Both the position numbers and the translations under genes were made by a program. From NCBI GenBank assembly GCA_034659915.1, contig JAYEID010000013.1:10627-74626 (forward strand): a stretch of DNA of 64,000 nucleotides, read 5' to 3'. This document shows positions 6,436 through 53,760 of this stretch, piece by piece (within the stretch, counting starts at the first letter, position 1; every line of letters begins with the position of its first letter). This stretch comes from Patescibacteria group bacterium (GTDB lineage Bacteria > Patescibacteriota > WWE3 > JAUXAW01 > JAYEID01). Under the pieces are notes generated by a model, which saw only the letters and a program-made list of their open reading frames with translations, did not search any database and was not told the origin of the DNA.

Positions 6436-6729
6436 ATGATGGATAGCTGTGTAGATGATGTTTTGTTAGGATTTCGGCGCTGCTTGGGGAGAGTACCACT
6501 GAGAGAAGTGGAAGCTTTCTGTGTAACTCTTGAGGAATCGGATTCTTCCGGGGTTTTTGTGGAGAAGACCCCCCTCGGAAGGGAGTCTTTACTCTATCTG
6601 GTTGCTGAGATTTTGGAAGTTGATCCAGAGGTGCTACTTGTGGAGATGCGTAACTGGGTTGCGGATGTTCGTGCTATCCAGCATCTTAAGATGGAGGAAG
6701 CGGAGAGACGTCACCAGCCTTGTATTTAG
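6436..6729 (+). CDS. Small acidic hypothetical protein (97 aa)
   Basis: ORF with AAGGGGG RBS 7 nt upstream; followed by its own terminator (6757-6800). Confidence 0.45.
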
Positions 6730-6756
6730 TTTGTATTTAGGTTGGTTTTTCCTTTT

Positions 6757-6800
6757 AGGGGGTCTAGAATCGCGCTGGGTTCTAGATTCCCTTCTTTTTT
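6757..6800 (+). terminator. Rho-independent terminator
   Basis: GGGGGTCTAGAATC-gcgctgg-GTTCTAGATTCCC hairpin followed by TTCTTTTTTAT. Confidence 0.6.
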
Positions 6801-6823
6801 ATAATTGCAAAGAAGGTATTGTG

Positions 6824-7114
6824 ATGGTAGTATCAAAGATAGAAATGAGTTTAGAAAAAGAAAAAAAGCAAGAAATAATTGAAGAATTTAGTAACCACGA
6901 GGAAGATACGGGATCTGCCGAGGTGCAGATAGCTCTTCTTACTGAAAAGATTAGTAAGCTTTCTTCGCATCTTAAAGAGCACAAGAAGGATGAGCACTCG
7001 CGGAGAGGCTTGTTAGGAATGGTTGAAAGAAGAAGGAAACTGCTTCGTCATCTTGAAAAAGAAGACGAAAAGCGGTATAATGCTCTTGTTCAGAAGTTGA
7101 AATTAAGAAAGTAG
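6824..7114 (+). CDS. rpsO: 30S ribosomal protein S15
   Basis: [49 protein letters not shown] matches S15; AAGAAGG RBS 10 nt upstream of the ATG at 6824. An alternative start at 6842 (MSLEK...) matches S15 N-termini better. The ORF-track start at 6530 is a spurious extension. Confidence 0.9.
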
Positions 7115-13032: not shown

Positions 13033-13058
13033 AGTAGACCTGCCTGCCGGCAGGCAGG
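13033..13058. repeat. Short intergenic copy of the GC-rich palindromic element (perfect palindrome CCTGCCTGCCGGCAGGCAGG)
   Basis: Matches the 5' module of the intragenic copies at 18913 and 29191. Confidence 0.6.
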
Positions 13059-15670: not shown

Positions 15671-15760
15671 GCTTAGAGAAAAATTTGCTTTGGTCCGGGG
15701 TTAGTAGATAACTAATTGTAAGCAAATTTTTCTATGCTCTTGAAAACGGCACCCCCGCCA
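15671..15760. repeat. Diverged partial copy of the 172-nt element (3' module) downstream of ftsK
   Basis: GCTTAGAGAAAAATTTGCTTT...AAGCAAATTTTTCTATGCTCTTGAAAACGGCACCCCCGCC aligns with the 3' half of the 172-nt element plus the GGCACCCCCGCC boundary motif. It is flanked by ~45-nt direct repeats (15577-15625 and 15801-15850). Confidence 0.75.
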
Positions 15761-15867
15761 TGCTTACAGCGTGAAAGTATCTGTTCTTAATCTGATTAGC
15801 GTATTTTGATTTCCAATCCCAGCGAAGTGACGTAAATTTCGGGGGTCCGCCGGATTCGCGCGAGACT

Positions 15868-15985
15868 TTGACAGGCACCCCCCTTTCAGGGCCGCTCGCA
15901 CCGTTCAGCGTTGGAGAGTAGGAAAGAGAACCGCTCGCTTTGTGATCAAAACCCTTCATGGCGGGAGCCTGCCAAGTCCCTTTCC
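15868..15985. repeat. Intergenic repeat family B, copy 2 (upstream of rodZ-like)
   Basis: Shares GGCACCCC..CT.TCAGGGCCGCTCGC.CC ... CGCT.GCTTTGTGATCAAAA..CCCTTCA.GGCGGGAGCC.GCCAA with 53603-53760. Confidence 0.75.
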
Positions 15986-17592: not shown

Positions 17593-19629
17593 TTGCAACC
17601 ACCGCTTTTTTCCGTTATTCTTAAGAACACAGTGACAGCTAGAGAATTGATTGAAAAGTATATTTCCTTTTTTGAGGCGCGTGGTCATGTTGAGATTGCT
17701 GGGGCTTCCTTAGTACCAGAAAATGATCCTTCTGCACTTTTTATCTCTGCTGGTATGCACCCTCTAATTCCCTTCTTGTTGGGAGAAGAACACCCTGCTG
17801 GTAAGCGCTTAGTTAGCTTACAAAAATGTATTCGAACAAATGATATTGAGCAAGTAGGTGACGGGTTTCATCATACCTTCTTCTTAATGCTTGGAAACTG
17901 GTCTTTGGGTGATTATTTTAAAAAAGAGGCAATCTCTTTTAGTTTTGAATTTCTTACTTCTTCTGAGTGGTTAGGGTTAGCTCCGGAAAGGTTGTATGTT
18001 TCTGTTTTTGCTGGTGATGAGACTGCTTCCCGGGATAAGGAGTCAATTAAGTATTGGAAGTTAGAATTTAAGAAAGTAGGGATTAAGGCTGAGGTGGGTG
18101 AGAGGATATTCTTCTTTGGAAAAGAAGAAAACTGGTGGGGACCTGTAGGTGATACAGGACCTTGCGGACCTGATACAGAAATATTTTATGATATAGGCAA
18201 AGACCATTGTGGTCCTAATTGCGATCCCTCTTGTCAATGTGGGAAATATATTGAAATTTGGAATGATGTGTTTATGGAATTTAAAAGAATCCGCCGGTTG
18301 GCGGACCGCAAACCGCAAACCGTGAACCGTGAACCGCAAGATAAAGAGCGGAAGGCGGAGAGCGGTTCGCGGAATGCCGATTACGAATATGTTCCTTTAG
18401 AGCAGAAAAATGTAGATACGGGGATGGGTGTAGCTAGGGTTGTTGCAGTTACTAGCGGCTACGCAGATGATGATTATAAAACCGACCTTTTCCACCCTAT
18501 TATTTCCAAGATTGAAGACTTGTCTGGTAAAGAATACCAGCAATTAGAAGTTAACAATGAACAATCGTTAGTTAGTTCAATGCGCATTATTGCTGATCAT
18601 GTACGGGCAGCTGTTTTTGCTATCAGTGATGGTGTAGTACCTTCAAATACAGATCGAGGTTACGTGGTTAGGCGACTAATTCGCCGTGCTGTTCGTCATG
18701 GACATGCTTTAAACATCCAAGATAGCTTTTTGGGGCAAGTTGCAGAGGTTGTAATTGAGAATTATAAGGATCTTTTTCCTGGGTTGGAAAGTGAGGAGGA
18801 AACAATACTTACTGAGATTTCCGATGAGGAAAAAAGATTTGGTAAGGTTTTGCGGAGAGGTTTGAAGCATTTTGAAAAGTTGGTTGAACAAAAAGTTGGT
18901 GATGAAACGCTGCCGCACCTGCCTGCCGGCAAGGCAGGTTCCCCAGCCCCTGGGGCTGCGGCCAAAGAAGCCCCAGGGGCTTCTCCTGCGCTGGGCGAGC
19001 GAATTACCGGGGAAGAAGCCTTCGACCTTTACCAAACATATGGGTTTCCGTTGGAGTTAACCAAAGAGCTGGCAGAGGAAAGGGGTTTAGCGGTTGATAG
19101 AAAGGGGTTTGAAGAGGCCTACAAAAAGCACCAAGAGAAATCCCGTTCTGGTGCAGATAAGAAATTTAGTGGGGGTTTGGTAAGTGAATCTGAAGAAGTT
19201 ATAAAACTGCATACAGCTACCCATCTTTTGCACGAAGCTCTGCGCCAGGTATTGGGTGCTCATGTAAAGCAGGAAGGGTCGAACATTACTCCCCAAAGAT
19301 TGCGGTTCGATTTTTCCCATCCAAAAGCAATGACGGAGGAGGAGATTGGAGAAGTCGAAGCTCTAGTTAATGAAAAAATAGAGGAAGATTTGCCCGTGCG
19401 GAAAGAGACCATGTCATTAGAGGAGGCAAGGGAGCGGGGTGCTTTAGCGTTTTTTACAGATAAATATGGAGATGAGGTGAAAGTTTATTCTATTGGCGGA
19501 TTTTCAAAAGAAGTTTGCGCTGGTCCTCATGTTGATTCTACCGGGAAACTTGGTAAATTTGAGATAATAAAGGAAGAATCTGTGGGTCGCGGTAAACGGA
19601 GAATCCGTGCTATACTGAAAAAGGATTAG
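17593..19629 (+). CDS. alaS: Alanyl-tRNA synthetase, short form (catalytic, tRNA-binding and editing domains; no C-Ala domain)
   Basis: Class II AlaRS core (ARGHVEIAGASLVP...FISAGMHP...QKCIRTNDIE..GDGFHHTFFLMLGNWSLGDYFK) and an editing domain with HxxxH...CAGPH. The start is uncertain: TTG at 17593 or GTG at 17630 (MTARELIEKY). The gene carries an in-frame 78-nt GC-rich repeat at 18913-18990. Confidence 0.9.
   Translation: MQPPLFSVILKNTVTARELIEKYISFFEARGHVEIAGASLVPENDPSALFISAGMHPLIPFLLGEEHPAGKRLVSLQKCIRTNDIEQVGDGFHHTFFLMLGNWSLGDYFKKEAISFSFEFLTSSEWLGLAPERLYVSVFAGDETASRDKESIKYWKLEFKKVGIKAEVGERIFFFGKEENWWGPVGDTGPCGPDTEIFYDIGKDHCGPNCDPSCQCGKYIEIWNDVFMEFKRIRRLADRKPQTVNREPQDKERKAESGSRNADYEYVPLEQKNVDTGMGVARVVAVTSGYADDDYKTDLFHPIISKIEDLSGKEYQQLEVNNEQSLVSSMRIIADHVRAAVFAISDGVVPSNTDRGYVVRRLIRRAVRHGHALNIQDSFLGQVAEVVIENYKDLFPGLESEEETILTEISDEEKRFGKVLRRGLKHFEKLVEQKVGDETLPHLPAGKAGSPAPGAAAKEAPGASPALGERITGEEAFDLYQTYGFPLELTKELAEERGLAVDRKGFEEAYKKHQEKSRSGADKKFSGGLVSESEEVIKLHTATHLLHEALRQVLGAHVKQEGSNITPQRLRFDFSHPKAMTEEEIGEVEALVNEKIEEDLPVRKETMSLEEARERGALAFFTDKYGDEVKVYSIGGFSKEVCAGPHVDSTGKLGKFEIIKEESVGRGKRRIRAILKKD
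18913..18990. repeat. GC-rich palindromic repeat element inserted in-frame in alaS (copy 1)
   Basis: ~78 nt, ~90% identical to 29191-29269. Contains palindrome CCTGCCTGCCGGCAAGGCAGG and the inverted pair AGCCCCTGGGGCT / AGCCCCAGGGGCT. It is translated as PAGKAGSPAPGAAAKEAPGASPA. Confidence 0.85.
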
Positions 19630-28708: not shown

Positions 28709-29416
28709 ATGTCTGTTGTCGCACGAAGTTTTTATAAGGGAAAGACTACGAGTATTGCTAAAAACCTTTTGGGAAAGGTTTTGGTTCGCCACGTAAAGCC
28801 CACGGAGAGTGGGTCACGTGCCACCGAAGTTGAGAATGAAATAAACAAGAAAGGAATAATCGTAGAGACGGAGGCTTATTTAGGACCGGAGGATAAGGCT
28901 TGCCATTCCTTCAGAGGGAAGACAGAAAGAACGGAGGTAATGTTTGGACCGGCGGGGCATGCTTATGTTTATTTGGTTTACGGAATTCATTATATGTTTA
29001 ATATTGTGACTGAGGCTCCGGGAGAAGCTGTTTTGGTTCGAGCACTTGAACCCCTTGGTGGTGAATTTGGTAAACGCATTGCTTCCGGTCCGGGTAAACT
29101 GACAAAGTGGCTTAATATTGATAAAAGCTTCAACGGTTGGGATTTGACCAAGGGGGAGGGGTTGTGGATTTCCCATGAGCCGCGATCTTCGCCGTACCTG
29201 CTTGCCGGCAAGGCGGGTTCCCCAGCCCATGGGGCTGCGGCCAGAGAAGCCCCAGGGGCGTCTCTTGCGGCGGAGGATTTAGACCACGGAAATTTCGAAA
29301 TTTCTTCCGCAAAAAGAGTTGGTGTAGATTACGCCGAAGAGTGGTCGGAAAAACCGCTTCGTTTTTTCATCAAAGATAATCCCGCTGTTTCTACAGCGCA
29401 GGACTCCTTATGTTAA
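28709..29416 (+). CDS. 3-methyladenine DNA glycosylase (MPG/AAG family)
   Basis: VETEAYLGPEDKACHSFRGKTERTEVMFGPAGHAYVYLVYGIHYMFNIV matches the MPG family; carries the in-frame GC-rich repeat at 29191-29269. Confidence 0.8.
   Translation: MSVVARSFYKGKTTSIAKNLLGKVLVRHVKPTESGSRATEVENEINKKGIIVETEAYLGPEDKACHSFRGKTERTEVMFGPAGHAYVYLVYGIHYMFNIVTEAPGEAVLVRALEPLGGEFGKRIASGPGKLTKWLNIDKSFNGWDLTKGEGLWISHEPRSSPYLLAGKAGSPAHGAAAREAPGASLAAEDLDHGNFEISSAKRVGVDYAEEWSEKPLRFFIKDNPAVSTAQDSLC
29191..29269. repeat. GC-rich palindromic repeat element inserted in-frame in the MPG glycosylase gene (copy 2)
   Basis: Same element and same translated frame as copy 1 (LAGKAGSPAHGAAAREAPGAS). Confidence 0.85.
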
Positions 29417-36745: not shown

Positions 36746-39700
36746 ATGCGGCATTATTTTGACCAAAAAAGAAGTATCTTGCCCCTTCCAGATTTAACTT
36801 CGCACCAACAGGATTCTTTTTCCTGGTTTAAGGGAGAAGGAATTGCAGAAATATTGGAAGAAATTAATCCTATTGAGGACCAAACTGGGCGTGGGTGGAA
36901 GCTTTATTTTGAAGACCCAAGGTTTGAAGAACCGGAAGTTACTGCGCAGGAAGCAATGAAACGGGGTCTTGTTTACTCCTCTCCTTGGTACTTAACTGCA
37001 AGGTTGGTTGAAGAAGAAAGTGGGAAAGAAAAGAAAAAAGACATTTTTATGGGAGATTTTCCTGAAATGACGGAACGAGGGACTTTTATTATTAATGGTG
37101 TACAGCGCGTGGTTGTGGGACAGCTTACACGTTCGGAGGGCGTACATTTTTCAGGAGAGATCGACCCTTCCACAGGTAATAATCTAACTACAGTTAAGGT
37201 GATACCCAAAAACGGTGCTTGGTTAGAATTTTCAACTTATAAAAGAGATGAGCTTGTTGTTTCTATTAATAGAAGTCGGAAATTTCCGGTAACTACGCTA
37301 CTTCGCGCTTTTGGTGTGGGCAATGATAAGGAAATGCTAGAGATTTTTGATGACGTAGATACGGATCCAAACCGCAAGTTTATTCCCACAACATTGGAGG
37401 CTGACGAAACCCCCAATTATGAAGAAGCAATTTTGGAGTTGTTTAGAAAAGTTCGCCCTGGTGAGCGGGTGATTTTGAAAAATGCTGAAGATTTGTTTAC
37501 GCAGATGTTTAGGGATCCGCAACGGTTTGATTTGGGAGCTCCAGGACGGTTTTTGCTTAACCAGCGTTTGGGACTTGATTATCCGTTGGATAATGACCGC
37601 TATCGGCTTTTGACAAAAGAGGATCTTATTCAGATTGTTAGGAGAATGATTCGGTTAAACAATGGTGAGGGTGATTATATTGATACTGATCACCTTAGTA
37701 ATAGACGAGTGAAGAGAATTGGAGAGCTAGCCCAAGCCCAACTTCGGACTGGATTCTTGCAAATGTCTAGAAATATTCAGGGAAGGATGAGTATACAGCC
37801 TCGAGGTGAGTTTCCTTCTCCAAAAAAGCTTATTTCAGCTCGCCCGGTAAGTGCTCGGATTCTTAGTTTTTATGCTTCAAGCCAATTGGCTCAGTTCCAC
37901 GATCAAAATAATCCTTTAGCCTTTCTTTCTCACCTTAGACGCCTTACAGTAAAAGGTCCCGGTGGTCTTACTCAGCGGAGTGCTTCTATTTCTGTCCGGG
38001 ATGTGCACCCCTCGCATTATGGGAGAATTTGCCCCATTGAAACTCCGGAAGGTGCCAATATTGGTTTTACTACTCACATGGCTTTGTATGCAAGAATAAA
38101 CGAACTTGGTTTTCTGGAGGCACCTTACCGGAAAGTAATTGAAGATGAAAAAGGAATGAAGGTTACGGAAGAAATTGAATACCTACCTTCTTGGGAGGAA
38201 GAAGAACACTTTATTACTAGTGCATCTGTGGATTTAGATGAGAATGGCTATATTGTGTCTGAGCGCGTTCCGTTGCGAAAAGAAGGCAGATTTTTCTCTG
38301 GTTCCAGAGAACCAGTAGAGTATATTGATGTAACACCTACCCAGTTAGTTGGAGCTGCTGCTTCTAGTGTGCCTTTTTTGTCGCACGACGATCCCAACCG
38401 GGCCTTAATGGCTTCCAATATGTCACGTCAGGCTGTTCCTCTGATTAAGCCTGAGTCTCCCATTGTTGGTACTGGATTAGAGAAAGACCTAGCGTTAAAT
38501 TCAGGTGCTATGGTTATAGCTCAAAGTAAGGGAAAGGTGATTTATGTAGACTCCAAGCAAATTAAGGTGCAGACCAAAGACGGCATTGAAGAGTACGAAC
38601 TTACCAAATTTAAAAAATCAAATAACGACACCTGTCTAAATCAGGTGCCCCGGGTTTCTGTTGGTGATAAAGTTAAAAAAGGTGACCTTCTTGCAGATGG
38701 GTCCTCAACTGACTATGGGGATTTGGCTTTGGGTACTAATTTGAAAATTGCGTATGTTTCTTTTAAAGGGCTAAACTACGAAGATGCTTTTGTTGTTTCA
38801 AGACGGTTGGTGGAAGAAGATGTTCTTACCTCTATTCATATTTCAGAATACGAAACTTCAGTTTTAGAGACCAAGTTGGGACCAGAACAGGTAACTCGGG
38901 ATATCCCAAATGTTTCAGAGGAGGCACTTCGAAACTTGGGGGAGGACGGCATTGTTGCTGTTGGTTCAGAAGTTAAATCGGGAGATATTTTGGTAGGAAA
39001 GATTGCGCCTAAAGGAGAAAGTGAACTTTCGGCAGAAGAGAGGTTGCTCCGATCTATTTTTGGTGAAAGAGCGCGGGATGTCCGGGACAATTCGTTACGA
39101 ATGCCTCACGGGGATTATGGTACAGTGGTTGGAATAAAGGTATTAACTGATGAAAATTCTGATTTGGAGCCGGGGGTGTTGCGGAAAATTCAAGTTAGAG
39201 TTGCTCAAAGAAGGAAATTAGCTGTGGGCGATAAATTAGTTGGGAAACACGGTAATAAAGGTGTAGTTGCGGCAATTTGGCCTGAGGAAGACATGCCTTA
39301 TTTGGAGGATGGTACTCCTGTTGATATTATTATGAGTTCTTGCTCGGTTATTTCTCGAATGAATACTGGTCAATTACTTGAAACTCATCTTGGTGCAGCT
39401 GGAGCCAAATTAGGTAAGAGATATGCTGTACCTCCTTTTTCTAAGTTTGATCCTGAGCAACTTCGTGCGGAGCTTGAAGCTGCTGGTCTTTCCAAAGATG
39501 GTAAACAGGTCCTTTACGATGGTTTTACAGGGGAGGCGTTTGAGCAGAAGGTAGTGGTTGGTAACTCCTATATTTTGAAATTAGAGCATTTGGTTGAGGA
39601 TAAGATACACGCCCGATCTACCGGGCCTTATGCACTTATTACTCAGCAGCCACTGGGGGGTAAGGCTCAATTTGGTGGTCAACGGTTTGGTGAGATGGAA

Positions 39701-39910
39701 GTATGGGCTTTGGAGGCGTATAGTGCTGCGGATATGTTACACGAAATGTTGACTATTAAATCTGATGATATAGTTGGACGCGGCCGTGCGTATAAGGCAT
39801 TAATTCAGGGGCAAGAAGTTCCAGAACCAACATTGCCGGAATCGTTTAAGCTTTTGGTTCGCGAGCTAAATGGTTTGGGTTTGGATATTGAAGGAGTAAA
39901 CAAAGAATAA
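36746..39910 (+). CDS. rpoB: DNA-directed RNA polymerase subunit beta
   Basis: 1054 aa with canonical RpoB motifs throughout. Confidence 0.97.
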   Translation: MRHYFDQKRSILPLPDLTSHQQDSFSWFKGEGIAEILEEINPIEDQTGRGWKLYFEDPRFEEPEVTAQEAMKRGLVYSSPWYLTARLVEEESGKEKKKDIFMGDFPEMTERGTFIINGVQRVVVGQLTRSEGVHFSGEIDPSTGNNLTTVKVIPKNGAWLEFSTYKRDELVVSINRSRKFPVTTLLRAFGVGNDKEMLEIFDDVDTDPNRKFIPTTLEADETPNYEEAILELFRKVRPGERVILKNAEDLFTQMFRDPQRFDLGAPGRFLLNQRLGLDYPLDNDRYRLLTKEDLIQIVRRMIRLNNGEGDYIDTDHLSNRRVKRIGELAQAQLRTGFLQMSRNIQGRMSIQPRGEFPSPKKLISARPVSARILSFYASSQLAQFHDQNNPLAFLSHLRRLTVKGPGGLTQRSASISVRDVHPSHYGRICPIETPEGANIGFTTHMALYARINELGFLEAPYRKVIEDEKGMKVTEEIEYLPSWEEEEHFITSASVDLDENGYIVSERVPLRKEGRFFSGSREPVEYIDVTPTQLVGAAASSVPFLSHDDPNRALMASNMSRQAVPLIKPESPIVGTGLEKDLALNSGAMVIAQSKGKVIYVDSKQIKVQTKDGIEEYELTKFKKSNNDTCLNQVPRVSVGDKVKKGDLLADGSSTDYGDLALGTNLKIAYVSFKGLNYEDAFVVSRRLVEEDVLTSIHISEYETSVLETKLGPEQVTRDIPNVSEEALRNLGEDGIVAVGSEVKSGDILVGKIAPKGESELSAEERLLRSIFGERARDVRDNSLRMPHGDYGTVVGIKVLTDENSDLEPGVLRKIQVRVAQRRKLAVGDKLVGKHGNKGVVAAIWPEEDMPYLEDGTPVDIIMSSCSVISRMNTGQLLETHLGAAGAKLGKRYAVPPFSKFDPEQLRAELEAAGLSKDGKQVLYDGFTGEAFEQKVVVGNSYILKLEHLVEDKIHARSTGPYALITQQPLGGKAQFGGQRFGEMEVWALEAYSAADMLHEMLTIKSDDIVGRGRAYKALIQGQEVPEPTLPESFKLLVRELNGLGLDIEGVNKE

Positions 39911-39972
39911 CCTTGATGGCAGAACTTTAGCAGGCACCTCGCCCGTAGAAAGTTTCCGGTTGCGGAACGCGT

Positions 39973-40144
39973 CGGTGCTACACGCTTTCAAGAGCCCTTG
40001 TACTACATAGAGTACAGGGCAGGCCGTGCTTAGGATTGAGCGCGTTTACCCCGAACCCTGCGTGGTTTGGGGCTTAGAGAAAAATTTGCTTTTAGTTTAT
40101 TGTTAATTGATAGGTTATTGTGGGCAAATTTTTCTATGCTCTTG
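39973..40144. repeat. 172-nt structured intergenic repeat, copy 1 (between rpoB and rpoC)
   Basis: 100% identical to 50854-51025; internal hairpins (CTTGTACT/AGTACAGG; CCCCGAACC/GGTTTGGGG with a G-U pair) and a long-range inverted repeat TTAGAGAAAAATTTGC / GCAAATTTTTCTATGC. Confidence 0.9.
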
Positions 40145-40227: not shown

Positions 40228-43200
40228 ATGTCTAACGACTTATCACAGTTCGAAAAATTTGATGCATTAAAAATAACTTTGGCTAGTCCCCAAGAGGTTC
40301 GTTCTTGGTCTCACGGGGAGGTTACAGAGCCAGAGACTATTAATTACCGTACTTTTAGGGCGGAGAAGGATGGTTTGTTTTGTGAGAAGATTTTTGGTCC
40401 AACAAAAGATTTTGAATGCTATTGCGGTAAATACAAAAAAATTCGCTTCAAAGGTGTTATTTGTGACAAATGTGGGGTTGAGGTTACCCGGAGAAGGGTA
40501 CGCCGGGAGCGAATGGGACATATTGAACTTGCTTCCCCTTGTGGTCACGTGTGGTTCTTTGGTACTGTGCCTTCTAAAATGGCTCGGCTGTTGGGCATGC
40601 GTTCTCGTGACCTTAAAGCTGTTATTTATTACTCAAAGTATTTAATTTTGAGTGTGGACGAAGATGAGCGAGAAAAAGTAGTTTCTGTTTTGGAAAAAGA
40701 TTTGGAGAAAGAAAAGGAGCAACTTCGCGAGGAAACTGAGGCAGAGATTGAAAAGATTGAAAACCAGATTGAGGAAAGAGCAGAAGAAGCTGATAGCGAG
40801 GAGGAAAGGGAGGAAATTCTCTTTTCGGGACGGAAAGAAATTGCACAACTTCGCGATGATTTGGTTACCAAGAAAAACAATTTAGAAAAGAAGTATGATG
40901 TTCTTTCAGCCCATTTAGAAGAAATTGAACCTCTTTCTGTTATTGGTGAGGCTGAGTATCGAAGTTTGCAAAAATATTTAGATAAGTTTTCGCAGGTTGG
41001 GATTGGAGCTCCGGGAGTTAAACGGGTATTAGAAGAGTTGAATACAGAAGAAATTGCCACGGAGCTGCGAGAAAAATTAAGAGAAACTAGTTCTAAGAGT
41101 AAAAGAAAGAAATACACTAGGCGCCTTAAAGCTGTTGAGCAATTTAATCGTTCTGATGTAGAACCAGCGTGGATGATTTTGGATGTTTTGCCTGTGATTC
41201 CTCCCGAACTGCGACCAATGGTCCAATTGGAGGGGGGACGATTTGCAACTTCTGATCTAAACGACCTTTACCGGGCTGTAATAAATCGAAATAATCGGTT
41301 GAAAGAATTGCTAGAATTAGGCGCGCCCGAACTTATTTTAAAAAATGAGCGGAGAATGCTTCAGGAAGCAGTGGATGCTCTAATTGATAGCAGCCGCTCG
41401 CGTCGGCGCCGCTACCGTGGGCAGAAAAAGCTCCGTTCTCTTTCAGATCTTATAAAAGGTAAACAGGGTCGGTTTAGAAGGAATTTACTTGGTAAGCGCG
41501 TAGATTATTCAGGGCGCTCAGTTATTGTAGTTGGTCCCGAGCTCAAAATTTCCGAGTGTGGTGTTCCAAAAGAAATGGCTTTAGAGCTTTTTAAGCCTAT
41601 GGTAATTAGGGAAGTATTGGCAGAGGGGCTAGCGCCTAATGTAAAGATGGCTAAGGAATTTATTAAACAGGAGCCACCTGAAGTGTGGGATATTTTGGAG
41701 CGGGTAGTTGAGGGTTGGCCTGTTCTTCTGAATCGGGCACCCACCTTGCATCGCTTGGGAATTCTTGCCTTTTATCCAAAACTTCTAGATGGTAAAGCGT
41801 TGAGTATTCACCCTTGTGTCTGTGCCGGTTATAATGCAGACTTTGACGGCGATCAAATGGCTGTTCATGTTCCTCTTTCTAAAGAAGCAAAAAGAGAAGC
41901 AGAAGAAATTATGCTTTCGACCAAAAACCTGCTTAAGCCAGCTTCGGGCAGCCCAGTAGTATCACCTTCCAAGGATATGGTCTTGGGTCTGTATTGGTTA
42001 ACAAGAGGACAGGGAGAGTTAGCTGAGGATAAGTTTTACTACTTAGAAGAGGCAAAAGTTGCTTGGGGAGAGGGCTACCTTAAGTTAAGACAGTTAACTA
42101 GGATTGAAATTGATGGAGTAGTTAGGGAAACTACTTTGGGTCGTGCTTTAGTAAATGAGAAAATTCCTAACAGCTTGGGATACGTAAACAAGGTAATGGA
42201 TAAAGATGTAGTCAAAGATGTTTTGAATCGTTGTTTGGAAGAGGAAGGTGAGGAAAGAACCGTTCAGTTGGTGGATGATTTGAAGTCTCTTGGATTTAAG
42301 TATGCTACTGAGTCAGGTATATCTATGGGTATCTTTGATACAGATGTACCAATTGATAAGCAAGAGAAGATTGAGGAGGCTGAGGAAAAAGTAGCAGAAA
42401 TTGAACACAACTTCCGGCGCGGGCTTTTGACTGAGGGTGAGATGCGGAGGCTTTCGCAGGAAATATGGCTGGATTTGACAAACGAATTAGAAGAGCTGAC
42501 CTGGAATTCGATGCGGAAGGAAAACCCAATGCGGATCTTGATTGAATCTGGTGCGCGCGGTTCTCCCGACCAGGTTAAGCAAATTTCAGGAATGAAGGGT
42601 TTGGTTGTTGATCCTACTGGTAAGATTGTAGAGTTGCCAACCAAATCTAACTATTTTGAAGGACTTTCCGAGTTTGAATATTTTGCAGGGGCTCGTGGTG
42701 CACGTAAAGGTTTGGCTGACACAGCGCTGAAGACGGCTGATGCTGGGTACCTCACACGGCGCCTCGTGGATGTTTGTCAGGAAGTTCTTGTTCGGGAAGA
42801 GGACTGTGGTACCCGAGCAGGTTTGGAAATTTCACGTGATGATGGTGAAGAGTTTGGTAGCTTTGCTTCAAGGTTAGAAGGGCGCGTAGCTGCAGACACA
42901 GTAAAAGATTCTGATGGTAATATTCTGGCTCGGCGTAATGACTTGATAGATAAGAGAAAGGCGGAAGAAATTGCAGAACAAGGACCCGATAGTGTGTTAC
43001 TGCGGTCCCCTATGACGTGTGAAACACCGTATGGTATCTGTCAAAAGTGCTATGGTTGGGATTTGGGCTGGCGCCAATTAGTGGAGTTGGGCTCACCCGT
43101 GGGTGTTATTGCTGCTCAATCAATTGGAGAGCCTGGCACTCAGCTGACACTACGAACTTTCCACTTTGGTGGTATTGCTAAAGAGGATATTACTCGTGGG

Positions 43201-43896
43201 CTCCCCCGTGTAACTCAACTATTTGAAGCACGCACCCCTAAAGTGTTGGCAGCAATGACGGAATTTGGTGGTAAGGTGAGTATTGAGGAGTTGGAAGAGG
43301 GGACTACTGTTGTTACTGTTACTTCTGAGGAGGGTGAGGCTGAGGAGTATCGAGTACCACCTACCCGAGAGGTTAGGGTTGAAGATGGTGATGTTGTTCC
43401 TGCTGGTTATGCCCTATCCTTGGGTTATCTTGATCCTGAAGAAGTTTTGGAAACGCTTGGACTTCGGGATGCTCAGAAATATATGCTTTCCGAAATCAAG
43501 AAGGTATACGCTTCCCAGGGTGTGGATTTGGATTCAAAACATGTTGAGGTTGTACTTCGACAAATGGTTTCTCAGGTTAAGATTGTTGAGGCTGGGGATA
43601 CGAACTTATTACCTGGGGAGGTTGTATCGCGGGAGCGCCTTGCTCAAGAAAACAAAAAAGCTCGCGAGGCAGATGGTAAGAAGGCAGAGGCGCAGCAATT
43701 GATTCTTGGTATTACTAAAGTCTCGTTGAATACTGAGTCGTGGCTTTCAGCAGCATCTTTCCAGGCAACGCGAAGAGTGCTTACTGATTCAGCAGTAAAG
43801 GGGGCTACTGATGTTTTACGAGGACTTAAGGAAAATGTAATTGTTGGGAAAAAAATTCCAATTGAGCCAGAAATTTATAAGGAAGAAAAAGAATAA
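40228..43896 (+). CDS. rpoC: DNA-directed RNA polymerase subunit beta'
   Basis: 1222 aa; zinc-binding CxxC...CxxC N-terminus, NADFDGD catalytic motif, and the trigger-loop and bridge-helix regions. Confidence 0.97.
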   Translation: MSNDLSQFEKFDALKITLASPQEVRSWSHGEVTEPETINYRTFRAEKDGLFCEKIFGPTKDFECYCGKYKKIRFKGVICDKCGVEVTRRRVRRERMGHIELASPCGHVWFFGTVPSKMARLLGMRSRDLKAVIYYSKYLILSVDEDEREKVVSVLEKDLEKEKEQLREETEAEIEKIENQIEERAEEADSEEEREEILFSGRKEIAQLRDDLVTKKNNLEKKYDVLSAHLEEIEPLSVIGEAEYRSLQKYLDKFSQVGIGAPGVKRVLEELNTEEIATELREKLRETSSKSKRKKYTRRLKAVEQFNRSDVEPAWMILDVLPVIPPELRPMVQLEGGRFATSDLNDLYRAVINRNNRLKELLELGAPELILKNERRMLQEAVDALIDSSRSRRRRYRGQKKLRSLSDLIKGKQGRFRRNLLGKRVDYSGRSVIVVGPELKISECGVPKEMALELFKPMVIREVLAEGLAPNVKMAKEFIKQEPPEVWDILERVVEGWPVLLNRAPTLHRLGILAFYPKLLDGKALSIHPCVCAGYNADFDGDQMAVHVPLSKEAKREAEEIMLSTKNLLKPASGSPVVSPSKDMVLGLYWLTRGQGELAEDKFYYLEEAKVAWGEGYLKLRQLTRIEIDGVVRETTLGRALVNEKIPNSLGYVNKVMDKDVVKDVLNRCLEEEGEERTVQLVDDLKSLGFKYATESGISMGIFDTDVPIDKQEKIEEAEEKVAEIEHNFRRGLLTEGEMRRLSQEIWLDLTNELEELTWNSMRKENPMRILIESGARGSPDQVKQISGMKGLVVDPTGKIVELPTKSNYFEGLSEFEYFAGARGARKGLADTALKTADAGYLTRRLVDVCQEVLVREEDCGTRAGLEISRDDGEEFGSFASRLEGRVAADTVKDSDGNILARRNDLIDKRKAEEIAEQGPDSVLLRSPMTCETPYGICQKCYGWDLGWRQLVELGSPVGVIAAQSIGEPGTQLTLRTFHFGGIAKEDITRGLPRVTQLFEARTPKVLAAMTEFGGKVSIEELEEGTTVVTVTSEEGEAEEYRVPPTREVRVEDGDVVPAGYALSLGYLDPEEVLETLGLRDAQKYMLSEIKKVYASQGVDLDSKHVEVVLRQMVSQVKIVEAGDTNLLPGEVVSRERLAQENKKAREADGKKAEAQQLILGITKVSLNTESWLSAASFQATRRVLTDSAVKGATDVLRGLKENVIVGKKIPIEPEIYKEEKE

Positions 43897-50832: not shown

Positions 50833-50853
50833 TAGGTAGTATTGTGGATGCGC

Positions 50854-51025
50854 CGGTGCTACACGCTTTCAAGAGCCCTTGTACTACATAGAGTACAGGG
50901 CAGGCCGTGCTTAGGATTGAGCGCGTTTACCCCGAACCCTGCGTGGTTTGGGGCTTAGAGAAAAATTTGCTTTTAGTTTATTGTTAATTGATAGGTTATT
51001 GTGGGCAAATTTTTCTATGCTCTTG
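50854..51025. repeat. 172-nt structured intergenic repeat, copy 2 (between rplW and rplB)
   Basis: Identical to 39973-40144. Confidence 0.9.
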
Positions 51026-51185
51026 ATCCCCGCCGCATCTTCGAGTTTGGGGGGTTACAACTTGAAAGATTCCGTTCTAATTCGCGTAAATTCGTTTTAG
51101 ATTAGTGTGAATTCGTGTGGGTTCCGGAAACAATGCGATCACATTTCTTTTATCGATTAACTGTCAAAGCTGTCTAGTTGATATT

Positions 51186-52010
51186 ATGAAAAAGTATAAA
51201 CCGACATCCCCGGGGCGACGGCACCGTGTGGATATAGATAAAAGTAAATTATCTAAAAAAGGACCGGAAAAGAAGCTTTCTTCTGGTGTTAAAGAGAAGG
51301 CTGGTCGTTCAGGTGGTAAAATTTCTGTTCGCCACAAAGGGAGTCGGGTAAAAAGGAAATTTAGGAATATTGATTTTAAAAGGAAGAAAAGAAGTATTCC
51401 CGGTGAGGTAGTTTCTTTGGAATATGATCCTAATCGGAGTGCGCATATTGCACTAATAAAATACGCGGATGGTGAAAAAAATTATATAATTGCACCTCAT
51501 GGCTTAGAAGTCGGAGAAAAAATTGTGGCAGGGGAAGATGTGGAGGTTAAAAGGGGTAATGCTATGCCTCTAGCTAATGTTCCTTTAGGAGAAGAGGTAC
51601 ACAATGTGGAGCTCCATCCTGGCGGTGGGGGGCAAATGGTTAGATCTGCTGGTACCAGTGCTCGGGTTATTGCCAAACCTGGTAAATATGTGCACTTGAA
51701 AATGCCTTCTGGTGAGGTCCGAAAGGTTTTGTCTTCTTGTTATGCTACCGTAGGTGGTGTGTCCAATCCTGATTGGGAAAATAAGAATTGGGGTAAGGCT
51801 GGTCGTAAGCGCCACTTAGGTATTAGACCAACGGTAAGGGGTTCGGCTATGGCTCCGGATGCTCACCCTCATGGTGGTGGAGAAGGAAGGACTGGGGAAG
51901 GGATGCCTTCTCCTAAGACTCCTTGGGGAAAGAAAACTCGTGGTAAGAAAACCCGAAAACGAAAACATACGGATAAGTACATAGTAAAAGATAGGCGGGA
52001 GAAGAAATAA
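51186..52010 (+). CDS. rplB: 50S ribosomal protein L2
   Basis: MKKYKPTSPGRRHRV...; GGGGQ...HPHGGGEG motifs; the ORF-track start at 51117 is an extension. Confidence 0.96.
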   Translation: MKKYKPTSPGRRHRVDIDKSKLSKKGPEKKLSSGVKEKAGRSGGKISVRHKGSRVKRKFRNIDFKRKKRSIPGEVVSLEYDPNRSAHIALIKYADGEKNYIIAPHGLEVGEKIVAGEDVEVKRGNAMPLANVPLGEEVHNVELHPGGGGQMVRSAGTSARVIAKPGKYVHLKMPSGEVRKVLSSCYATVGGVSNPDWENKNWGKAGRKRHLGIRPTVRGSAMAPDAHPHGGGEGRTGEGMPSPKTPWGKKTRGKKTRKRKHTDKYIVKDRREKK

Positions 52011-53591: not shown

Positions 53592-53602
53592 TATGAAAAG
53601 AC

Positions 53603-53760
53603 TTTGGCGGGCACCCCGCCTCTCAGGGCCGCTCGCGCCTGTCGAAGTTTAAGTCTGATTTGGTTAAGCGCTTGCTTTGTGATCAAAAGTCGAATGGTGT
53701 CAGTGAATAATTGTAGCGACTTTTGATCAAAACCCTTCAAGGCGGGAGCCAGCCAACGTC
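53603..53760. repeat. Intergenic repeat family B, copy 1 (between rpsC and rplP), with a nested hairpin insertion
   Basis: Same modules as 15868-15985, plus a ~45-nt insert forming TGATCAAAAGTCG...CGACTTTTGATCA (53680-53730), flanked by direct repeat GATCAAAA. Confidence 0.75.

Follow-up and report, generated by a model that had tools for sequence, protein, structure and literature searches.

The stretch analysed here, called the window below, comprises 64,000 nucleotides of contig JAYEID010000013.1 from a Patescibacteria group bacterium (assembly GCA_034659915.1). Two of its genes, one for a DNA-3-methyladenine glycosylase of the MPG/AAG family and the other, alaS, for alanine-tRNA ligase (AlaRS), each carry in frame a copy of a GC-rich palindromic repeat, and a shorter palindrome lies between the RNase J gene and ftsK. 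The copy in the glycosylase gene (the MPG copy) is the subject of this report. The features concerned are listed below (aa, amino acids; ORF, open reading frame).

28709-29416, + strand: host gene of the MPG copy, MPG/AAG-family DNA-3-methyladenine glycosylase, 235 aa (Pfam PF02245, E 5e-52; PDB 1bnk, E 1e-30)
29190-29273, + strand: MPG copy of the composite element, 84 nt or 28 codons, residues about S161-A188, with three modules and the terminal pair CGCCGTA / TGCGGCG
29197-29217, + strand: module 1 of the MPG copy, CCTGCTTGCCGGCAAGGCGGG, a 21-nt palindrome unit with two transitions that give G.U pairs in the sense RNA
29220-29237, + strand: module 2 hairpin of the MPG copy, CCCCAGCCCATGGGGCTG
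29246-29262, + strand: module 3 hairpin of the MPG copy, GAAGCCCCAGGGGCGTC, within the 24-nt block missing from site B of the relative L008 (see below)
17593-19629, + strand: host gene alaS, alanine-tRNA ligase (short form with editing domain), 678-aa ORF
18912-18990, + strand: alaS copy (site B), residues about 440-466, 3′ terminal repeat partly decayed
18918-18938, 18941-18958 and 18967-18983, + strand: modules of the alaS copy
13039-13058, unstranded: solo 20-nt perfect palindrome CCTGCCTGCCGGCAGGCAGG, RNase J-ftsK intergenic, a non-coding form of module 1
Predicted peptide stretch spanning the insert: ..AGKAGSPAHGAAAR..

Two in-frame copies of a GC-rich repeat

Repeat-family search and alignment show that the segments 29191-29269 and 18912-18990, both on the + strand, are identical at 72 of 79 positions. 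This value of 91% bears out an earlier note on this DNA, which had put the identity at about 90%. Both copies lie on the coding strand of their gene and share one reading frame, in which they encode ..PYLLAGKAGSPAHGAAAREAPGASLAA.. in MPG and ..PHLPAGKAGSPAPGAAAKEAPGASPAL.. in alaS. Judged against two copies in L008, the limits of the MPG copy were widened to about 29190-29273, so that they take in the inverted terminal pair. Coincidental similarity of GC-rich sequence does not account for the pair: with up to 3 mismatches, matches to a 39-nt core are confined to the MPG and alaS copies, none was obtained in 100 dinucleotide shuffles, and further copies are present in L008. The two 91-nt segments that hold the copies have a GC content of 70–73%, compared with 42% for the window, and are the top two GC islands of the 64 kb.

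Independent assemblies, together with the divergence between the copies, rule out that the insert is an artefact of one assembly. The insert-bearing MPG allele is encoded identically on contigs L001 and L002 from two other assemblies (Logan SRR26901925 and SRR26901928). One of these Logan contigs begins inside the alaS copy, as expected because repeats break short-read assembly.

The element is free of stop codons in every frame. We do not regard this openness as a special property, since 7–8% of composition-matched shuffles are equally stop-free in all six frames. The opposite-strand ORFs that the earlier note called shadows of the repeat do exist and run antisense through the stop-free element; given the share of stop-free shuffles, they are by-products of GC richness.

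The inserts fall in predicted disordered loops

The MPG and AlaRS of the window each have a 100% identical counterpart in an NCBI Patescibacteria metagenome-assembled genome, where both lie on a 184-kb contig. The PF02245 match of the MPG protein is broken at the insert, and in an alignment of 24 MPG homologues the segment SPYLLAGKAGSPAHGAAAREAPGASLAAEDLDH occurs in the window protein alone. At this position equivalent residues are missing from more than 20 homologues without the insert, among them the closest relative (P0002/L007, 59% identity), which speaks against an ancient conserved sequence. The MPG genes of L007 and of a further relative, L005, show the empty site, with about six loop residues and codons that read ..W-V-x-x-G-x-x-K-x-F-E-I... 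Alignment to the structurally characterised human AAG (1bnk), a check that the earlier note had proposed, places 38 residues of the window protein where AAG has 6, between two β strands. In the AlphaFold model of MPG (mean predicted local distance difference test score, pLDDT, 83), pLDDT falls below 50 at residues 170-190, between the strands 152-155 and 198-201. The AlaRS element falls between residues 371 and 378 of Aquifex AlaRS (1riq), and in the AlaRS model (mean pLDDT 80) it forms one of two long low-confidence stretches (residues 440-465, pLDDT <50). According to these models, both window copies are placed in low-confidence loops that are predicted to be disordered.

Could the peptide itself be the reason for the insert? 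If both enzymes had recruited it as a functional module, for example as a flexible linker or docking motif, this would suit the single frame of all copies and the Pro/Ala/Gly-rich, linker-like composition. However, the MPG and alaS copies differ at 9 codons and, because 7 of these differences are non-synonymous, the encoded peptide is not conserved as a peptide. Also, the segment is predicted to be disordered, nearly all homologues are without it, identity between copies is at the nucleotide level with synonymous sites included, and no similar peptide was found among 5.8 billion protein clusters or 1.84 billion representatives. We therefore give a recruited peptide module very little probability.

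Further copies and empty sites in relatives

The syntenic relative L008 (GCA_964476415.1), whose AlaRS is 75% identical to that of the window, carries two copies of the element inside alaS. The first, at site B, is orthologous to the window alaS copy and is a short form with 24 nt fewer, GCCGCCGCA CCTGCCTGCCGGCAAGGCAGG TTCCCCAGCCCCTGGGGCT TCTCTTGCGGCGGC. The second lies in a third, non-homologous loop just before SMRIIADH (site X); it is without module 1, GCCGCCGCA TTCCCCAGCCCCTGGGGCTGCGGCCAAAGAAGCCCCAGGGGCT TCTCCTGCGGCGG, and 52 nt of it are 100% identical to the window alaS copy. The window alaS is empty at site X, and L009, L003 and P0124 are empty at site B. In all, four composite copies are known from two related Patescibacteria genomes, at three non-homologous positions (alaS site B, alaS site X and the MPG C-terminal loop), and all four have one strand, the sense strand, and one reading frame. 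The MPG copy keeps the 3′ end TCTCTTGCGGCGG, as in L008 site B, whereas this end has decayed in the window alaS copy; the MPG copy therefore appears to come from an older long-form copy.

Modular anatomy and probable translation of the insert

Alignment of the four copies reveals a terminal inverted repeat of 7–9 bp, (G)CCGCCGCA...TGCGGCGG(C), around two or three hairpin modules. Of these, module 1 has a length of 21 nt, module 2 is a 13-nt quasi-palindrome, and module 3 is formed by the reverse-complement quasi-palindrome within a 24-nt block. The copies combine the modules as 1+2+3, 1+2 or 2+3 and range from 63 to 86 nt; they vary by whole 21-nt or 24-nt blocks, and every length difference is a multiple of three. 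With the three hairpins and the closing stem, 92.5% of the proposed pair cells are standard across the four copies, compared with 37–52% when partners are slid, and the fold z-score of the MPG copy is −2.6. The small repeat family with in-frame insertion proposed in the earlier note is sustained by the empty homologues, the further copies in L008 and the single strand and frame. The idea of a single unit has to be given up: as read from the aligned sequences, the element is a modular composite.

The frame and the lengths also bear on whether the insert is translated. Precedent for the contrary exists in Magnusiomyces mitochondria, where byp elements, GC-rich hairpin inserts in the coding regions of an AT-rich genome, are out of frame and are skipped by the ribosome (PMC8811140). 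That the window insert is likewise bypassed, or removed by an intron-like excision, is hardly credible to us: the frame is kept in all copies, lengths differ by multiples of three, and there is no stop or frameshift to skip. Conservation of frame and length would be unneeded in an untranslated segment and therefore favours translation, which sets the element apart from byp elements.

Other inserts in alaS and MPG

The alaS and MPG genes of the window and its relatives contain several other inserts. Within the window alaS, insert A (18289-18388, residues 233-265) is a second, unrelated in-frame GC-rich imperfect palindrome, with the sequence CCGCCGGTTGGCGG, then ACCGCAAACCGCAAACCGTGAACCGTGAACCGC ... 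GCGGAAGGCGGAGAGCGGTTCGCGG. It is missing in Aquifex AlaRS and most homologues, is common to the window, L005, L008, L009 and P0124, and is predicted to be disordered (pLDDT <50 at residues 237-262). Its synonymous sites are conserved to an unusual degree, with a third-position identity of 0.8–1.0 among all four genomes, compared with about 0.48 for the three distant lineages. Part of insert A (18343-18375) is the motif CGGAAGGCGGA(R)AGCGG, encoding RKAESG, which occurs again at alaS site X of two relatives (L009:9920-9960 and L005:2563-2603). The presence of this CGGAAGGCGGAGAGCGG motif both in insert A and at site X suggests a second in-frame hairpin family that may change sites within alaS.

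Long inserts unrelated to the element occupy alaS site B in L005 (2930-3063) and in protein P0132. That of L005 consists of three tandem hairpins, the last of which, CCGCCGAGGAAACCCCGGAGGTTTCTTCTGCGGCGG, is similar to module 3 together with the terminal repeat and has changes that appear to compensate each other. Site B looks like an insertion hotspot.

In the MPG gene of relative L003, the loop of the window insert holds an AT-rich insert (L003:9168-9212) with an architecture like modules 2-3: two 13-nt quasi-palindromic arms, AAAGCTAAGCTTT ... AAAGCTTAGCTTT, lie 13 nt apart, and the sequence is unrelated to the window element. Several other Patescibacteria MPG homologues (P0002, P0003, P0004, P0005, P0018 and P0022) have differing inserts of 10–45 residues at another loop, after RALEP. 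The window MPG and P0002 also have an N-terminal insert in common (residues about 31-45, pLDDT 58).

Probable recombination around the alaS inserts

Third codon positions of the window and L008 alaS genes have an identity of 0.50 over 638 codons, compared with 0.93–1.00 over the element and roughly 20 flanking codons on each side; around insert A (residues 233-265) the value is also 0.93. For the close pair L009/L005 it is 0.79 overall and 0.12–0.33 around site B, where L005 has the three-hairpin insert and L009 none. Further patches of mosaic identity occur along alaS. We infer that short homologous-recombination tracts ferry inserts between lineages.

A different explanation for nearly frozen synonymous sites over the element is that the hairpins are a selected nucleic-acid structure in the mRNAs, for instance one that pauses translation at a domain boundary, protects against RNase or binds a protein, the peptide being incidental. 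All six one-sided changes in the proposed stems go to G.U, which pairs in the sense RNA only, stem 3 of the MPG copy has become longer through two changes, and the peptide itself drifts. Nevertheless, covariation over the four copies gave no usable signal, the observed score being attained by shuffles in 374 of 500 trials, most relatives are without the structure at these sites, and no Rfam family matches it. Also, the frozen tract extends over about 20 flanking codons outside the hairpins and mosaic identity is found elsewhere in alaS; therefore, recombination is favoured over a selected structure, which we consider decidedly improbable.

The 20/21-nt palindrome and its occurrence in phages

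The earlier note had also reported a short perfect palindrome in the RNase J-ftsK intergenic region that matches the 5′ module of the repeat. The palindrome exists, at 13039-13058 rather than 13037-13056, and its sequence is that of module 1 in the alaS copy with one A left out (20 of 21 positions). It is preceded directly upstream by GTAG plus one base. We rejected the possibility that it is an intrinsic terminator: a T-tail is missing, and no terminator was called here. A truncated copy was seen downstream of infB in relative L003.

The exact 20-mer was found at 42 sites in 35 loci of IMG/VR, on contigs of 38–68% GC and with unrelated flanks, while two composition-matched control palindromes gave 0 matches; the 21-nt form was found at 7 loci. 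The contigs that bear it are genuine, diverse tailed phages with terminases and lambda-, P22- or Mu-type portal or head genes. No copy of the exact 20-mer occurs in 50,697 GenBank phage records, no recurrent enzyme family was found among 122 ORFs of palindrome-rich phage contigs, and the 20-mer sequence was not found in published papers.

Filled and empty alleles can be compared at two kinds of site. In a tRNA-Met gene of phage locus L035 (ARAGORN; Rfam 50 bits), the 20-mer lies within the variable loop. The same tRNA-Met is present without it in the syntenic locus L079 and in L080 and L081, which defines an exact 20-nt insertion, ambiguous only by a 3-nt AGG. A tRNA-Met of L012 (8616) has the 20-mer too; its T arm has lost 13 nt, and ARAGORN calls no tRNA there. 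The second case is a phage ORF for which nine contigs have ..LELEAGDPP.. and three have ..LELD-LPAGKAG-AGDPP.., a difference of exactly CCTGCCTGCCGGCAAGGCAGG (21 nt), which lies inside a GAG codon with the frame kept and without duplication. In that frame this 21-mer is module 1 of the alaS copies, from which the MPG copy differs by two substitutions, and its boundaries match the difference between L008 site X and the remaining copies.

At the palindrome flanks no fixed target duplication was found, and the 21-nt insertion in the phage ORF is also without one. Purines are preferred next to the palindrome: among 78 symmetrised flanks, 60 have one as the adjoining base. An adapter or assembly artefact was rejected, as the palindrome lies inside collinear homologous sequence, recurs in independent datasets and shows divergence in the MPG copy.

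Some viral sites show other peculiarities. At five of them (L013:1660, L019:8396, L027:6720, L029:3391 and L034:897) the palindrome breaks short tandem heptamer-like repeats, with direct repeats of 7–14 nt on either side; most other viral sites have no flanking repeat. On one phage contig (IMGVR_UViG_3300025106_000007), at least 10 tandem 21-nt units, CCATGCCTACCGGCAGGCAGG, run to the end of the locus (L044:3915-4142), accompanied by many hybrid palindrome variants with mixed arms, and two back-to-back 21-mers lie between terS and terL (L049:632-673). A tRNA-like sequence at L042:515 has the palindrome in its D-loop (GGTAGCTCAGTTGGTA|pal|GAGC), and a group I intron (Rfam, 86 bits) follows about 650 nt downstream.

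Rather than being a decayed offshoot of the 79-nt element, the intergenic palindrome is a member of a much wider 20/21-nt family, which in uncultivated phages acts as a discrete insertion unit. More tentatively, and as a possibility to which we would give somewhat less than even chances, the 20-bp CCTGCCTGCCGGCAGGCAGG and its 21-bp form with an extra A could be a mobile unit shared by many unrelated uncultivated tailed phages and Patescibacteria. Such a unit would insert precisely into intergenic DNA, the tRNA variable loop and, in its 3n form (LPAGKAG), coding sequence, with no target duplication and no linked gene, and the composites would have been built by nested insertion or duplication of micro-hairpins. 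If true, a mobile 20-bp palindrome would imply a new trans-acting or replication-based insertion mechanism. A mobile unit of 20/21 bp would, to our knowledge, be far below any described prokaryotic mobile DNA in size.

Searches for further copies and for an enzyme

We consider it probable that the MPG copy belongs to a palindromic repeat, GC-rich, non-autonomous and low in copy number, which has been copied into those parts of essential genes that encode loops. Several results weigh against this interpretation. Copies are very few: four composite ones were seen in two genomes, and alaS holds three of these. Within the source genome, for which the 64-kb window was read, there are two composite copies and one solo module, and intergenic or decayed copies were counted in the window only. 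Exact patterns for the module 2-3 core and for a gapped stretch from module 2 to the 3′ end gave 0 matches in 185,579 species-representative genomes, as did the module 2-3 junction in JGI metagenomes and module 2 and module 3 each in IMG/VR. About 80 kb from five other relatives contained no composite. At the protein level, a 60-aa join of both peptides had no match among the 5.8 billion clusters, and a 30-aa peptide had one weak low-complexity match, and no further carrier, among the 1.84 billion representatives. The composite copies have no flanking target-site duplication and no conserved target, and no transposase was found among ten unannotated ORFs of the window. Lastly, translation of the insert is something that we infer from sequence, and the high synonymous-site identity could come from selection on nucleic-acid structure and not from recent recombination.

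Some of these results would be explained if a few one-off events of illegitimate recombination or ectopic duplication, without any element-specific mobility, had put a piece of alaS into alaS and MPG, the hairpins being breakage-prone. Three of the four copies are in alaS and only two genes are concerned; there is neither a target duplication nor an enzyme, and the collection scans returned nothing. However, the copies share the inverted terminal pair at three unrelated sites, unlike random breakpoints. Module 1 is separately a discrete insertion unit with the same exact boundaries, and another hairpin family, that of CGGAAGGCGGAGAGCGG, hops sites likewise in these alaS genes. One-off duplication is thus unlikely, in our judgement, and a repeat with the capacity to be copied is the explanation that we prefer.

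Module 2 alone gave 24 matches in JGI metagenomes, all of them unrelated single hairpins, which were rejected. Rfam returned no family at the gathering threshold across the window; near the element there was one sub-threshold chance match, which lies outside it. No description of such elements was found in the literature for Patescibacteria or phages.

Other features of the window

A 176-nt intergenic sequence is duplicated at 99% identity (39969-40144 and 50850-51025), with an 86-nt relative at 15679-15764. The first copy lies between ORFs 36746-39910 and 40228-43896, whose sizes suggest rpoB and rpoC, and the second is upstream of ORF 51117-52010; no Rfam match was obtained for this sequence, even at E up to 1. 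A GC-rich motif, GACTTTGNCNGGCACCCC..TCAGGGCCGCTCGC, is common to two islands in or beside intergenic DNA, one at about 15864-15905, without Rfam match, and one at 53600-53640, which overlaps the 3′ end of an ORF. Over positions 1-64000 no Rfam family, not even a tRNA, reached the gathering score, despite the clusters of translation and transcription genes. ORF 6530-7114 (194 aa) encodes ribosomal protein S15 (Pfam match at residues 113-193) and has either a 112-residue N-terminal extension or a mis-set start.

Discussion

How does the element compare with known repeats? Rickettsia palindromic elements (RPEs) are, according to two later papers (Ogata et al. 2000, via PMC10969869, PMC3184786), palindromic repeats of about 105–150 bp and tens of dispersed copies per genome, intergenic ones among them, that lie in frame in unrelated housekeeping genes of a reduced genome. 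Each family has one frame and encodes a peptide compatible with the fold of the host protein, and no transposase is known for them (PMC10969869, PMC3184786). Like RPEs, the window element is a hairpin-forming repeat that lies in frame in unrelated genes (two sites of alaS, and MPG) and has one element frame. Compared by description and not by RPE sequence, it differs in its length of 63–86 nt, its GC richness in an AT-rich genome, its separable hairpin modules, the four copies seen so far and its Patescibacteria host.

Yeast mitochondrial GC clusters offer a second parallel. They are short GC-rich palindromes in AT-rich DNA, some of them optional in-frame inserts in var1, and they merge and shuffle into composites and are tied to recombination and gene conversion (PMC8811140). 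Most are intergenic, they have many copies, and their AG/TAG terminal repeats are read as target duplications (PMC8811140). The window element resembles them in its high GC content (70–73% vs 42%), in being filled or empty among relatives and in the shuffling of modules between copies. It differs in having no terminal target duplication, the only ambiguity being the 3-nt AGG at the phage tRNA site, and the clusters are organellar.

The solo palindrome can be compared with repetitive extragenic palindromic sequences (REP) and their REPIN arrangements, which RAYT transposases mobilise (PMC3733652). REPs measure 20–40 nt, bear a GTAG or CGTC tag and are species-specific, high-copy and tied to a RAYT gene. 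The solo 20-nt palindrome is extragenic, GC-rich and REP-sized, and in the window it has GTAG one base upstream. Unlike REP, it is identical across contigs of 38–68% GC, most viral copies have no GTAG tag, it also occurs inside genes, and no RAYT was seen.

Bacterial MITEs, or miniature inverted-repeat transposable elements, are small and non-autonomous, have terminal inverted repeats and occasionally give rise to in-frame fusions. The window element likewise has terminal inverted repeats (7–9 bp), a small size and a non-autonomous nature. In contrast to MITEs, it has no target-site duplication, no parent insertion sequence was seen in the 64-kb window, and the 20/21-nt unit is far under the usual MITE size. 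Judged by analogy, the element works like RPEs and yeast mitochondrial GC clusters and is a member of neither, nor of MITEs, because size, copy number as counted so far, host, terminal duplications (for RPEs and GC clusters), and target duplication and parent transposase (for MITEs) do not fit.

Why, then, is only one strand and one frame seen? We propose that transcription and translation of the host gene would include the insert and would yield a disordered surface loop, rich in Pro, Ala and Gly and about 28 residues long, which the enzymes may tolerate. Purifying selection on essential genes would clear insertions that shift the frame or encode a harmful peptide, and the single strand and frame may be observed because all other insertions have been removed in this way. 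The earlier note had left it open whether in-frame insertion is tolerated or selected for; the data fit selection against inserts that are out of frame or not benign, and do not demonstrate selection for insertion. The hairpins would then reflect the copying of DNA, through a single-strand hairpin or an inverted-repeat intermediate, and not a service to the host. Between lineages, the element may move inside short homologous-recombination tracts. The MPG copy itself would have come from a long-form copy of the alaS type and then drifted, with 7 changes in 79 nt.

For annotation, the consequences are practical: Pfam matches are interrupted by such inserts, short-read assemblies break at them, and long antisense ORFs arise from them. 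Their modular anatomy is a tractable lead on the origin of such elements, as one module is a phage palindrome with clean filled and empty alleles, and the palindrome may be a tracer of exchange between ultra-small bacteria and phages. So far, palindromic selfish DNA that lies in frame has been a curiosity of Rickettsia and fungal mitochondria. The same behaviour in Patescibacteria suggests that it may be a general outcome in small AT-rich genomes, which have little non-coding space and in which loops would be among the few survivable sites.

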